The notes beneath the pieces were generated by a model. It did not search any database. It saw only the letters and a program-made list of their open reading frames with translations, and was not told the DNA's origin. From assembly GCA_965219415.1 (NCBI GenBank), contig OZ244742.1:71082-135081 (forward strand): a stretch of 64,000 nucleotides of DNA, read 5' to 3'. This DNA is from Candidatus Marinacidobacterales bacterium (GTDB lineage: Bacteria > Acidobacteriota > Vicinamibacteria > Marinacidobacterales > DATDRI01). Shown here piece after piece: positions 49,022 through 53,355 of the stretch (its first letter is position 1; the number at the start of each line of letters is the position of its first letter). Both the position numbers and the translations under genes were made by a program.

Positions 49022-49819
49022 ATGAAGAAAGCATACCCAGTGGAGTTCGTGTTCCAGACGGTGTCGCTCATCGTCGCGATCATCATCGTCCATGCCATCT
49101 ACGTTCTCGTCGTTCGTCCACGAGCGGATTACATCCTGGCTGAACAACAGGCACTCATGGAGGCCGACGAAAACTATGTTCAGGAACGATCGGTCTTCGT
49201 GATCGTCCGCGACTTCGAGCAAGAATCTTGCTTTGTTTTGATGCTATGGGCGATGGCGATCATGTCGTACAAGGCGATGGACGCCGCACGCGAGAAACAC
49301 CTGCTCGAGCTGGATTTGGTTCCGGTCGCGGAGGGGACCAAGATCTTGCCCGAAGATGCACGCGAGTATGCACGTCAGATCCAATCATTGCCGGATTCCC
49401 AACAACGCCTGCTGCTCCCACGCGCCTTGCTTTCGGCGCTCGCCCGGTTCGGCGCCACGCGCAACATTCAAGACGTCTCAACCACGGCCCACGCCGTGGC
49501 CGAGGCGGAGTCGGAACGCTTGGACTCCGAGCTCTCGATGGTCCGCTACATCGCGTGGGCCATTCCGTCGATCGGATTCATAGGCACGGTCCGCGGTATC
49601 GGCGACGCCCTCGGACAGGCGCACAAGGCGGTTGAAGGTGACATCGCGGGTGTCACTCAAAGCCTGGGCGTCGCTTTCAATTCCACCTTTATCGCGCTCT
49701 TGATCAGCATCGTGCTCATGTTTCTCCTGCACCAGCTGCAGCTCCAGCAGGAACGGCTGGTGGCCGACGCCGACACCTACCTCGACCATCACCTCATCCA
49801 ACATCTTCAGGTTTCTTAG
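49022..49819 (+). CDS. Operon gene 6: MotA/TolQ/ExbB-family proton-channel protein
   Basis: 265 aa. Family signature ..YIAWAIPSIGFIGTVRGIGDAL......GVTQSLGVAFNSTFIALLISIVLMFLLHQL. N-terminal TM FVFQTVSLIVAIIIVHAIYVLVV. Confidence 0.85.
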   Translation: MKKAYPVEFVFQTVSLIVAIIIVHAIYVLVVRPRADYILAEQQALMEADENYVQERSVFVIVRDFEQESCFVLMLWAMAIMSYKAMDAAREKHLLELDLVPVAEGTKILPEDAREYARQIQSLPDSQQRLLLPRALLSALARFGATRNIQDVSTTAHAVAEAESERLDSELSMVRYIAWAIPSIGFIGTVRGIGDALGQAHKAVEGDIAGVTQSLGVAFNSTFIALLISIVLMFLLHQLQLQQERLVADADTYLDHHLIQHLQVS

Positions 49820-49824
49820 CCGAG

Positions 49825-51267
49825 ATGAGTGTCTTAGCTATAGAGCTCAACGACACCGGGATCGAAGCGGTGCGTGATTCCGATCCGGAAGCCGAGGTCA
49901 TTGCTGCCAGTCCTGGTGTCGTCGTGTTGGATGGAGAAACCCTACTCACCGGACGCAAGGCGGCGAGCCGCGCCCGGTTGAAGCCCCGGTGGGCCTACGA
50001 CCGATTTTGGGAAGAGCTGGATACCACACCGCTTCCTCGGCCGTTTCCGACAACCCTGCGTCGAGCCGATCTCGCTCACGCCCATCTAGAAGAAGTTTGG
50101 GAATCCACTCGAGAGCGAGCCGATGACGTAATGTTGGCAATTCCCGGATCCTTTTCACATGAACAGCTGGGGCTCGTCTTAGGAATCGCCCGCGCGTGCG
50201 GCATGCCGGTCGCGGGGATGATCGATTCTTCGGTCGCTTCGTCGACACTCGTCGGTCAAGAGTCCAGCTTGGCACCGGTAGCCGTTCACCTCGATCTGCA
50301 TCTGCATCGAACCGTGGCGACTAGAGTCGAGCGCAATCATGAAGTGAAGCGGGCACGGATCGAGGTAAACGACGGTGTCGGCCTAATGGAGCTGCTCGAT
50401 GCTTGGGTGAGACTCATCGCTCAGGTTTTTGTCCGCACCACTCGCTTCGACCCTCTCCATGGAGGCAAGAGCGAGCAAGCTCTCTACCTTCGTCTGCCGG
50501 TGTGGCTCGACGAGCTTCGACAGAAAGACGAAGCCACTCTCACCATGAAGGGCGCGGGGAAGAATCACTCCATCGAGATCACGCGCGAGCAGATCATTGC
50601 CTGCGCCCAACCCTTCTACGAAGTCTTCGCACAGCTGGCGAAGGCGTTGGAACCCGCCGGCCATTCGGCAACGCTGCTACTGCCGAAACGAATGACTGAG
50701 CTTCCCGGGCTCGAGGGCTTCCTGAGACTCGCGAACCCCGACCTGGTGGCTCTTCCAGGCGCAGCCGGCGCCAAGGGTGCCCTGAAGCTGGTAGGACATT
50801 TCCGTTCCGACAGAACTGGGGAGGAGCTACCTTTCGTCACCCAAATTGCGCTGAGCAGTGCATCTCCAGGCGGCCCAGAGTCCGAGGGCGGGACAGCGGC
50901 CCCTCCCGTCGAGGCTCCAGACGAAGAATCCAAAGTGCCAACCCACGTTCTATTTGAGGGACTCGCGCACCCCATCACGTCGGACCCTTTGGTCATCGGG
51001 TTAGCCGTGCCGGACGGAAGTCACGGCATCGACTTGGCCGAGCGAGGCGGGTCTTCCGCCGGTATTTCACGTTCCCACTGCAGTATCTATCGTGTCGAGG
51101 AACGAGTCTTGCTGGAGGATCACAGCAGCTACGGCTCCTTTCTCAACGACAAACGGATCGAAACGAAGGCGATTCTCGCAGCGAGAGATCGGGTGAGAAT
51201 CGGCACTCCCGGTGTCGAGCTGCACCTGATCGCCGTGGTGGATTCCGATGACGCGCCGCAGGATTAA
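49825..51267 (+). CDS. Operon gene 7: degenerate Hsp70/actin-like NBD fused to a C-terminal FHA domain (cytoplasmic)
   Basis: LAIELNDTG sits where DnaK has IGIDLGTTNS. VMLAIPGSFSHEQLGLVLGIARACGMPVAGMIDSSVASS resembles AVITVPAYFND.QR.A...AG..AGL.V.RIINEPTAAA. VHLDLHLHRT sits where DnaK has DLGGGTFD. FHA part ..ISRSHCSIYRVEERVLLEDHSSYGSFLNDKRI....ARDRVRIG. Confidence 0.8.
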   Translation: MSVLAIELNDTGIEAVRDSDPEAEVIAASPGVVVLDGETLLTGRKAASRARLKPRWAYDRFWEELDTTPLPRPFPTTLRRADLAHAHLEEVWESTRERADDVMLAIPGSFSHEQLGLVLGIARACGMPVAGMIDSSVASSTLVGQESSLAPVAVHLDLHLHRTVATRVERNHEVKRARIEVNDGVGLMELLDAWVRLIAQVFVRTTRFDPLHGGKSEQALYLRLPVWLDELRQKDEATLTMKGAGKNHSIEITREQIIACAQPFYEVFAQLAKALEPAGHSATLLLPKRMTELPGLEGFLRLANPDLVALPGAAGAKGALKLVGHFRSDRTGEELPFVTQIALSSASPGGPESEGGTAAPPVEAPDEESKVPTHVLFEGLAHPITSDPLVIGLAVPDGSHGIDLAERGGSSAGISRSHCSIYRVEERVLLEDHSSYGSFLNDKRIETKAILAARDRVRIGTPGVELHLIAVVDSDDAPQD

Positions 51268-52339: not shown

Positions 52340-52341
52340 AG

Positions 52342-53355
52342 ATGAAGAAAAGAGCGAAGCGAGAAAGCGCCCTGACAGGGTTCAGCCTGTCGTTTCTGGA
52401 TTGTATTTGCTGTGGATTCGGCGCCATCATCCTGCTGTTGGTATTAACGAAGATCGGTGAGCCACGAGCGCTCGAGGCGCTTCGGATCGATCTCGAAGGT
52501 CTGGTCGCTCGCCTTCAAGAAGAGCTCTACGAGATCCGTGGCGAGACGAACGTTCTGAATCGCGAGCTCGTCAGCAAGGAGGAGCAGATCTCCAAAGAAC
52601 GGGTTCGGATCGCTCGCTTGCGAGGGGACTTCTCCAAGATTCGAGGGGAGTACGCGACGAGCAAAGAACTCTCGGAGATCAACGACATCGTCGAAGGTCG
52701 CCTGCTCGCCGCCCGGCAGGAGCTGAGCGAGGAGATGAAACGACTCCTCGGCCTCGCCCATCGACGCGACACGAAGGACGCCACGGTGGGAGGGATCCCT
52801 GTCGACAGCGAGTACGTCATCTTCATCATCGATACATCGGGCAGCATGCACAACTACGCCTGGTCGATGGTCAATCGGAAGATGAAAGAGACGCTCGACA
52901 TCTATCCCAAGGTGAAGGGTCTGCAGGTCATGAACGACATGGGCCAGCACATGTTCAGAAACTACGCCGGTAAATGGATTCCAGACACTCCGGGGAGGCG
53001 TCGCGTGATCCTCGACCGGCTCCGGACATGGTCTCCCTTTAGCAACAGCAGCCCGGTGGAAGGAATTACCCGTGCTATCAAGCGCTACGCCACCCCCGAC
53101 AAGAAGATCAGCCTCTACGTCTTCGGTGACGAGTTCACCGGACGCTCCATCGACGATGTCGTCAGAACCGTCGATCGGATCAACAAAGAAGATTCGCAAG
53201 GAAATCGCTTGGTTCGAATCCACGGCATCGGCTTCCCCGTGATGTTCTCTCAATCGGGATTTCCGGAGAACACCGGTGTGCGGTTCGCGACCTTGATGCG
53301 GGAGCTCTGTCGCCGCAACGGAGGCGCTTTCGTCGGACTGAGCTGGCGCCGCTGA
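52342..53355 (+). CDS. Operon gene 9: paralog of gene 8 (ExbD/TolR-like TM with Asp, coiled coil, vWA domain)
   Basis: N-terminus MKKRAKRESALTGFSLSFLDCICCGFGAIILLLVL. Asp20 codon at 52399-52401. Coiled-coil region. vWA MIDAS motif VIFIIDTSGSM. Starts 2 nt after the gene 8 stop. Confidence 0.82.
   Translation: MKKRAKRESALTGFSLSFLDCICCGFGAIILLLVLTKIGEPRALEALRIDLEGLVARLQEELYEIRGETNVLNRELVSKEEQISKERVRIARLRGDFSKIRGEYATSKELSEINDIVEGRLLAARQELSEEMKRLLGLAHRRDTKDATVGGIPVDSEYVIFIIDTSGSMHNYAWSMVNRKMKETLDIYPKVKGLQVMNDMGQHMFRNYAGKWIPDTPGRRRVILDRLRTWSPFSNSSPVEGITRAIKRYATPDKKISLYVFGDEFTGRSIDDVVRTVDRINKEDSQGNRLVRIHGIGFPVMFSQSGFPENTGVRFATLMRELCRRNGGAFVGLSWRR

Follow-up and report, generated by a model that had tools for sequence, protein, structure and literature searches.

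Ion-driven motors of the 5:2 type power flagella, Ton-dependent uptake, Tol-Pal envelope maintenance, gliding, type IX secretion and Zorya defence. In TolQ the residues T145 and T178 are essential; in the gliding system of Myxococcus xanthus, AglR-AglQ/AglS, a TolQ-like channel works with two different TolR-like central subunits, thus providing a precedent for a hetero-pair at the center of the motor. GldM is not known to carry a von Willebrand factor type A (vWA) domain and has different charged residues. The system closest to the one considered here was described in 2025 (PMC12204202; Mol Biol Evol 2025, Fig. 4c,d): vWA proteins tethered by a transmembrane (TM) helix co-occur tightly with tolQ homologs, without tolR or exbD; they mostly form heterologous pairs, are devoid of the SHLS motif and display a conserved Asp in a "transpore helix". 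The AlphaFold3 (AF3) 5:2 models of that study put the transpore helices inside the TolQ-like pentamer, beside a conserved Thr ring; the exemplar is from Idiomarina loihiensis and the family is present in Proteobacteria and in the PVC group. The same paper predicts that a second vWA family docks on the side of a TolQR-like motor. A locus of the first kind is found in the stretch of 64,000 nucleotides analysed here (the window), which derives from contig OZ244742.1 of Candidatus Marinacidobacterales bacterium and contains a block of nine genes, including a MotA/TolQ/ExbB-like channel gene (gene 6) and two vWA paralogs (genes 8 and 9).

The locus resembles the published family in having an N-terminal single-TM vWA protein, a heterologous pair, a tolQ-like neighbour and no tolR, exbD or motB nearby, as well as the Asp in the TM helix, the Thr ring in the TolQ-like protein and the lack of an SHLS or His motif; judged by these described features, it is an uncharacterised new member of that family. 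An initial annotation, made from the sequence alone, knew of no description of the arrangement; one exists, since the core idea was published in 2025 together with an AF3 5:2 model (PMC12204202), and the locus is thus not a new arrangement. Differently from the published cases, it comes from Acidobacteriota (Vicinamibacteria-like), a phylum that is not named in the text of that paper; moreover, the kinase, the two FHA proteins, the Hsp70-like domain, the PEGA/FGE-like protein and the small secreted protein of the locus are not mentioned there. What is added here is the nine-gene syntenic context, a conserved motif of gene 5, the conservation data and the lack of detectable sequence homology between the anchors and ExbD, TolR or MotB.

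Homologs of gene 8 include proteins labelled Vicinamibacteria and Acidobacteriota, and the window probably belongs to that group. A search of cluster representatives with gene 8 returned 1350 related clusters, 327 of them with E<=1e-30, and 84 diverse representatives were aligned together with genes 8 and 9 (86 sequences, mean column identity 39%). A genomic scan with one genome per species gave at least 599 matches, and the best 80 were used for locus comparison with flanks of ~8 kb; these loci include the 80 gene-8 and 78 gene-9 orthologs, from at least six phyla, to which the counts below refer, while conservation of gene 6 was obtained from 40 orthologs of several phyla. Structure predictions are those of single chains (AlphaFold2, AF2).

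Gene 6 matches the Pfam family PF01618 (MotA_ExbB) with an E-value of 7.1e-14 and 52.1 bits, which passes the gathering cut-off of 22.9; its placement in the MotA/TolQ/ExbB family by the initial annotation is thus borne out. The best relative with a solved structure is TolQ, both for the single sequence and for the ortholog profile (profile against PDB, E 7.5e-4). In the alignment T189 corresponds to TolQ T145 and T222 to TolQ T178; these two pore residues, together with N220, P182, G185 and G188, are invariant in the orthologs. A further conserved stretch, R-F-x-x-T-R-N-I, is found in the cytoplasmic loop at residues 142-150, where R142 and F143 are invariant and T146 is kept in at least 90% of the sequences; it has the pT-x-x-I shape favoured by FHA domains, a link to phosphorylation being speculation.

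Genes 8 and 9 share the same architecture: a basic N-tail leads into a single TM helix that contains an Asp, and a helical stalk then connects to a vWA domain, in which the metal ion-dependent adhesion site (MIDAS) is found. The initial annotation had proposed this organisation; the ORFs of genes 6 to 9 are located at the coordinates given, and the quoted peptides are found verbatim in the sequence, as are the Asp codons and the DSSAS and DTSGS motifs. The anchor Asp, which it had singled out as Asp15 and Asp20, is kept in 80/80 gene-8 and 78/78 gene-9 orthologs, within the motif F-S-L-S-F-L-D-x-[IM]-x-C-G-[FL]-G-A. Indeed, this Asp is one of only 11 invariant columns in the 86-sequence alignment; these include the anchor positions F13, D15, G22 and L26 and the MIDAS positions S173 and M176, whereas C19, G20, A23, D171, S175, D290 and T294 are conserved at 90% or more. 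Since D15, C19, G22 and L26 are spaced i, i+4, i+7 and i+11, they line one face of the helix; neither a conserved His column nor an SHLS-type motif is found in the anchors. The N-tail has a mean net charge of +2.7 in gene 8 and +2.4 in gene 9, and Lys and Arg residues are more abundant in the N-terminal than in the C-terminal flank of the helix in 67/80 gene-8 and in 76/78 gene-9 orthologs; according to the positive-inside rule, this bias poses the N-terminus in the cytoplasm and the vWA domain in the periplasm, in agreement with the topology first suggested.

The AF2 model of gene 8, with a predicted local distance difference test score (pLDDT) of 75 overall and of ~90 in the head, displays the TM helix (residues 11-34), a second helix that is interrupted once (44-133), a disordered linker (134-156) and a compact domain (160-363); the second helix corresponds well to the stalk of ~90 residues that had been read from the sequence. 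The best Foldseek matches of the compact domain in PDB are all vWA domains (CLCA1, ITIH1, BatB and anthrax toxin receptors), Pfam reports VWA_2, VWA_3 and VWA at 3e-7 to 3e-5, and the MIDAS residues D171, S173, S175, T266 and D290 are conserved. For gene 9 alone the Pfam match is marginal (VWA_2, E 0.021); however, BLASTP gives 29% identity with gene 8 (E 4e-14), spanning the anchor, the stalk and the MIDAS region, and hhalign matches the gene-9 ortholog profile to the gene-8 family from end to end with a probability of 100% (E 2.5e-50), from which we infer that gene 9 also has a vWA fold. In its orthologs the MIDAS motif D164-T-S-G-S-M169 and D263 are invariant. The distance between the TM Asp and the MIDAS Asp is near-constant across phyla (gene 8, 153-157 residues; gene 9, 141-146 residues), a finding that fits a stalk of defined length. 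Gene 9, and not gene 8, also has at residues ~38-46 a conserved Glu-Pro shortly after the TM helix, the Pro being kept in 77/78 orthologs, and then an amphipathic stretch; this we take to recall Pro52 and the "plug" helix of MotB.

Pfam and NCBIfam scans of the operon proteins revealed no ExbD, TolR, MotB or OmpA-like domain, and the same result was obtained for 20 further open reading frames (ORFs; 99-328 aa) across the window. A tblastn search with the E. coli ExbD, TolR and MotB proteins against the window and the 80 loci with their flanks gave nothing below E 0.7, so that the absence of a canonical partner gene, already noticed in the initial annotation, holds for the operon, for the window and for ~8 kb around the 80 loci. 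A match with E 0.99 on the small gene-5 ORF of one locus (L002) was judged hydrophobic noise. In genes 8 and 9 the periplasmic part is a helical stalk with a vWA domain, instead of an ExbD-type domain or an OmpA-like peptidoglycan-binding domain.

Thus, the products of genes 6, 8 and 9 may form an ion-driven motor in the inner membrane, of the MotAB/ExbBD/TolQR (5:2) kind and with a vWA-headed heterodimer, a reading to which we give somewhat better than even chances. Gene 6 would form the outer MotA/TolQ/ExbB-like pentameric ring, and a gene-8/gene-9 heterodimer would provide the two central helices, replacing the ExbD/TolR/MotB homodimer; the invariant Asp of each central helix would face the Thr189/Thr222 ring, taking up and releasing protons, and proton flow would turn the ring relative to the dimer. 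The latter would continue as a parallel helical stalk of ~90 residues (~13 nm), exposing two vWA/MIDAS heads in the periplasm; these could grip a partner through a metal-bound acidic residue, and the work performed at the inner membrane would be applied in this way to an envelope component. The pairing of the paralogs, the pore Thr and the conservation of the Asp count for this reading, and the AF3 models (PMC12204202) provide independent support. Of the stator-like 5:2 motor proposed in the initial annotation, the motor itself is supported in silico by the Asp, the Thr ring, the topology and the lack of a visible canonical partner; its novelty is not.

Similarly to TolQ-TolR and ExbB-ExbD, the locus combines a PF01618 channel having both pore Thr with an N-in single-pass partner with an Asp near the cytoplasmic end. 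In contrast, the partner here would be a heterodimer of paralogs with a long stalk and a vWA head and without the ExbD/TolR periplasmic domain; moreover, no TolA/TonB-like third subunit is evident, and the anchor sequence is not detectably homologous. AglQ and AglS also differ, since they are short, TolR-like and not known to bear vWA heads; there, the adhesin with a vWA domain is a distinct outer-membrane lipoprotein, CglB. A putative 5:2 inner-membrane motor with a central dimer reaching far into the periplasm likens the locus to GldLM/PorLM of type IX secretion, and the non-catalytic FGE-sulfatase fold of the PorK/GldK ring is found in gene 4; however, GldL does not belong to PF01618 and no other type IX secretion genes are present at the locus.

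Table 1. Features of the nine-gene block and of its downstream neighbours (positions in the window)
Feature	Position	Strand	Description
Nine-gene block	41.6-53.4 kb	+	Tightly packed, with small gaps or overlaps
Gene 1	41612-42625	+	Predicted lipoprotein; lipobox LTVVVGC; start codon uncertain
Gene 2	42629-43876	+	Secreted protein, 415 aa; family unassigned
Gene 3	43848-46181	+	Hanks-type Ser/Thr kinase; Pkinase E 2.9e-29, TPR_2 E 8e-8
Gene 4	46178-48586	+	N-terminal FHA-like domain, one TM helix, five PEGA, C-terminal FGE-sulfatase-fold domain
Gene 5	48747-49007	+	Small secreted protein; signal peptide, variable acidic low-complexity linker, conserved C-terminal motif
Gene 6	49022-49819	+	MotA/TolQ/ExbB-family channel subunit (PF01618), 265 aa; presumed pentamer
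Gene 6, residues 142-150	49445-49471		Conserved stretch of the cytoplasmic loop
Gene 6, T189	49586-49588		Pore Thr
Gene 6, T222	49685-49687		Pore Thr
Gene 7	49825-51267	+	Cytoplasmic; Hsp70/actin-like N-terminal domain, C-terminal FHA domain (~51055-51204)
Gene 8	51248-52339	+	363 aa; basic N-tail, TM helix with Asp15, helical stalk, linker, vWA domain
Gene 8, Asp15	51290-51292		Codon GAC
Gene 8, stalk	~51377-51646	+	Helical
Gene 8, vWA domain	~51725-52336	+	
Gene 8, MIDAS	51758-51772	+	DSSAS
Gene 9	52342-53355	+	337 aa; divergent paralog of gene 8, same architecture
Gene 9, Asp20	52399-52401		Codon GAT
Gene 9, MIDAS	52831-52845	+	DTSGS
Oligopeptidase B gene	53383-55494		Downstream of the block
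Two adjacent ORFs	55692-58189	-	4-nt overlap; HLLEH motif in the upstream one

The other genes of the block encode signalling and envelope proteins (Table 1); genes 2 and 3 overlap by 29 nt, genes 3 and 4 by 4 nt and genes 7 and 8 by 20 nt, and genes 8 and 9 are separated by 2 nt. Gene 3 contains a cytoplasmic kinase domain with HRDLK and DFG motifs, one TM helix at ~314-332 and periplasmic TPR repeats. In gene 4, Pfam identifies PEGA (E 3.3e-55, five stretches) and FGE-sulfatase (E 1.6e-37), and NCBIfam identifies GldK (E 9.8e-27); its profile against PDB retrieves FGE (3e-32), PorK (1.5e-24) and, at positions 16-91, the Ki-67 FHA domain (1.1e-3). The FGE-fold domain is devoid, as in the PorK/GldK type, of the two catalytic Cys of FGE, the C-terminal sequence of gene 4 being Cys-free. 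In gene 7 the FHA domain is recognised by Pfam with E 4.5e-10, while the ortholog profile against PDB matches SSB1 (4.9e-5), DnaK (1.3e-3) and the Ki-67 FHA domain (1.6e-5); R207-F-D-P210 is invariant. By eye, the glycine-rich phosphate loops of Hsp70 appear to be replaced ("LDLHLHR" vs "DLGGGT") and the protein may therefore not hydrolyse ATP.

A Hanks kinase, FHA and vWA are also found in one module in the H1 type VI secretion system (H1-T6SS) of P. aeruginosa (PpkA, Fha1 and TagR) and in the archaeal ArnA/ArnB/ArnC; in the former the vWA domain of PpkA is periplasmic and serves as a sensor, with TagR as its co-receptor (PMC3224232). Differently from these modules, vWA domains are carried here by separate proteins with Asp-bearing helices beside a MotA-like channel; no T6SS or archaellum genes and no PP2C phosphatase were found at the locus.

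Gene 1 is nearly all low-complexity Ser/Gly/Glu/Pro and has no Pfam match; its last ~45 residues (…DDIVARQLREAATQEDDPKLREKLWEEYRAYKRG…) are found again ahead of gene 2 in 19 loci, in distant phyla and with 60-76% identity. Gene 2 has no match in Pfam or NCBIfam; in its AF2 model (pLDDT 80) an N-terminal alpha/beta domain, with weak Foldseek likeness to the N-terminal domain of TolB and to LptE (E ~1e-3), is followed by a long helical hairpin (residues 241-357). An ORF of the gene-5 type lies between genes 4 and 6 in 59/62 loci, and its C-terminus reads, across phyla, F-x-P-[ST]-E-x-[IV]-x-A-D-x-x-[VI]-x-F-P-x-D-I-COOH, with P(-4) and I(-1) in 55/55 sequences and D(-2) in 52/55. This acidic tail is a possible ligand of the vWA MIDAS sites.

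Carriers of the cluster among the best 80 matches are Vicinamibacteria and other Acidobacteriota, many Gammaproteobacteria (Steroidobacteraceae, Woeseiaceae, Lysobacterales, Pseudomonadales and Thiotrichales), Desulfobacterales, Myxococcales, Kiritimatiellia and Isosphaeraceae. Synteny of the whole block extends over Acidobacteriota, Gammaproteobacteria, Desulfobacterota, Myxococcales, Kiritimatiellia and Planctomycetes, the gene order being stable across phyla at 45-80% identity. The number of loci in which each gene is present falls from 80 (gene 8), 79 (gene 9), 74 (gene 6) and 73 (gene 7) to 63 (gene 4), 56 (gene 3), 48 (gene 2) and 19 (gene 1); absences of block genes mostly correspond to contig ends, and genes 8 and 9 occur together in 79/80 loci. 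In a gammaproteobacterial sub-clade (L031, L054, L056, L066, L069, L070 and L076) gene 8 directly follows gene 6, gene 7 is missing, and the kinase and gene 4 are retained. One contig with a full cluster (L051) is labelled "MAG: Klebsiella pneumoniae"; it is probably mis-binned, since its proteins resemble those of environmental Pseudomonadales loci.

Neither a PP2C phosphatase nor any other extra gene is conserved in the flanks of the 80 loci, where just lineage-specific additions are found: 20 gammaproteobacterial loci have a gene for a lipoprotein, 17 loci one for a TPR protein and 4 Woeseiaceae loci one for an OmpA/Gly-zipper protein. The first is predicted to be a lipoprotein of 216-359 aa, has no Pfam match and is encoded directly after gene 9 (L008:10103-10834 and 19 other loci). 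The last, located ~140 bp after gene 9 (L027:4338-5063 and three other Woeseiaceae loci), belongs to the OmpA family and has an N-terminal glycine-zipper; it does not look like MotB and is lineage-specific. In the window, the flanking genes of the cluster are ordinary housekeeping genes. The oligopeptidase B gene downstream of gene 9 is part of the block in none of the 80 loci; it is followed by two adjacent ORFs on the minus strand, the upstream one having an HLLEH motif, which, reading from the letters only, we take to be typical of M16 (pitrilysin-type) zinc peptidases. These ORFs and oligopeptidase B make up a peptidase-rich neighbourhood unrelated to the cluster. A literature search on the whole cluster by NCBI product names found no papers.

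The presence of these genes around the putative motor allows a wider proposal. The kinase of gene 3 and the FHA proteins of genes 4 and 7 probably switch or localise the motor from the cytoplasmic side, and candidate periplasmic partners of the heads would be the acidic tail of gene 5, the PorK-like domain of gene 4, gene 2 and the lipoprotein of gene 1; among them, the gene-5 tail and the PorK-like domain are our preferred candidates. In its most complete form, the nine genes would encode a phospho-regulated envelope machine with a 5:1:1 proton motor as its core, where the heads capture the gene-5 tail or the PorK-like domain of gene 4, and the kinase switches the motor via the two FHA proteins, the Hsp70-like one docking on the cytoplasmic face of the channel. 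This scheme is tentative, and as a whole it is more doubtful than probable; no description of a kinase-gated 5:2 motor with its own ligand was found in the searchable literature.

Several points weigh against the motor interpretation. Gene 6 is far under the NCBIfam equivalog cut-offs, both for TolQ (TIGR02796, 28.2 vs 221 bits) and for ExbB (TIGR02805, 19.2 vs 135 bits), and it thus represents a divergent, separate branch, neither TolQ nor ExbB. As for the anchors, the initial annotation had likened them to those of ExbD and TolR; the common features are indeed present (the N-tail is short and basic, the single-pass helix is oriented N-in and its Asp is close to the cytoplasmic end), but homology to ExbD, TolR or MotB by sequence was dropped, since scanning ten anchor fragments in Pfam at E<=10 did not retrieve ExbD, and a profile built from 43 anchor sequences did not retrieve ExbD, TolR or MotB among all PDB chains at E<=10. 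In addition, the invariant C-G-F-G-A motif sets the anchors of genes 8 and 9 apart from these proteins. The likeness is therefore one of features and not of demonstrable homology; this weakens the statement that the anchor is an ExbD, and not that it works like one. Furthermore, the partner search covers the 64-kb window and the 80 loci, and a partner encoded elsewhere in the genome would escape it; the support for any member of the family is in silico; the 5:2 (5:1:1) assembly is drawn from analogy and from an AF3 model that was published for another species; and for the proposed phospho-switch no off-enzyme is visible, no PP2C phosphatase being conserved near the cluster.

An alternative, which we consider unlikely, is that the complex of genes 6, 8 and 9 is a sensor or a gated channel, whose vWA heads would read a periplasmic ligand, such as the gene-5 tail, or the state of the envelope and convert it into a gated ion flux or a conformational signal for the kinase and the FHA proteins. 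Indeed, the cluster is rich in signalling parts, with an apparently active Hanks kinase and two FHA domains, the periplasmic vWA of PpkA acts as a sensor with TagR (PMC3224232), and the block contains no TonB-dependent transporter, secretin, gliding apparatus or other outer-membrane machine. However, the strict Asp and Thr-ring chemistry is a hallmark of the proton-coupled 5:2 motors, and a rigid stalk of fixed length is better suited to the transmission of force. The sensor and motor roles are not mutually exclusive.

Less probable still is that the partner of gene 6 is a canonical ExbD/TolR dimer from another part of the genome; genes 8 and 9 would then be peripheral, TolA/TonB-like clients attached to the outside of the pentamer, or unrelated adhesins anchored in the membrane. 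The view is limited to 64 genomic kb, ExbD/TolR homology of the anchors is not detectable and a side-docking vWA family of a TolQR-like motor has been proposed (PMC12204202), all of which would fit such a role; conversely, the anchors display an invariant Asp on a conserved helix face and no His or SHLS-type motif, no ExbD, TolR or MotB gene is present within ~8 kb in the 80 loci of at least six phyla, and the paralogs are paired in 79/80 loci, as is expected for two central subunits. An anti-phage or conflict system, either Zorya-like of the MotAB type or a vWA/kinase "ternary", in which the heads or the motor detect invasion and the kinase responds, is very improbable: the PADLOC ZorA model has, in its MotA/ExbB part, a weak match to gene 6 (E 3.9e-4), gene 3 matches defence-associated kinase models by generic kinase similarity and vWA, kinase and FHA combinations do occur in conflict systems (PMC7159879), but no ZorB, ZorC, ZorD, ZorE, MoxR ATPase, effector nuclease or protease was found in the block, its gene order is stable across phyla at 45-80% identity, no relative was found among 2.9 million viral contigs and the flanks are ordinary housekeeping genes. 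In particular, Zorya was rejected since PADLOC gave a single weak ZorA-domain match and no other Zor proteins, and Bat/MoxR, TerY-P and vWA-ternary systems (PMC7159879) for the absence of their defining ATPase and phosphatase partners, with no MoxR AAA+ or DUF58 in the block.

The reading of genes 6, 8 and 9 as a motor has consequences for this group of machines, since each new output module widens the known uses of 5:2 motors. A stalked metal-dependent adhesion domain in place of ExbD, TolR or MotB would let proton flow directly pull or turn a protein ligand. The family is widespread, with at least 599 genomic matches in one scan and carriers in at least six phyla. The presence of its own kinase and FHA genes hints at a motor regulated by Ser/Thr phosphorylation, for which we know of no characterised precedent among these systems. 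The nine-gene context and the gene 5 motif are the parts most worth attention, and the existence of cultured carriers, such as Steroidobacter agaridevorans and Peristeroidobacter agariperforans, makes the idea testable.

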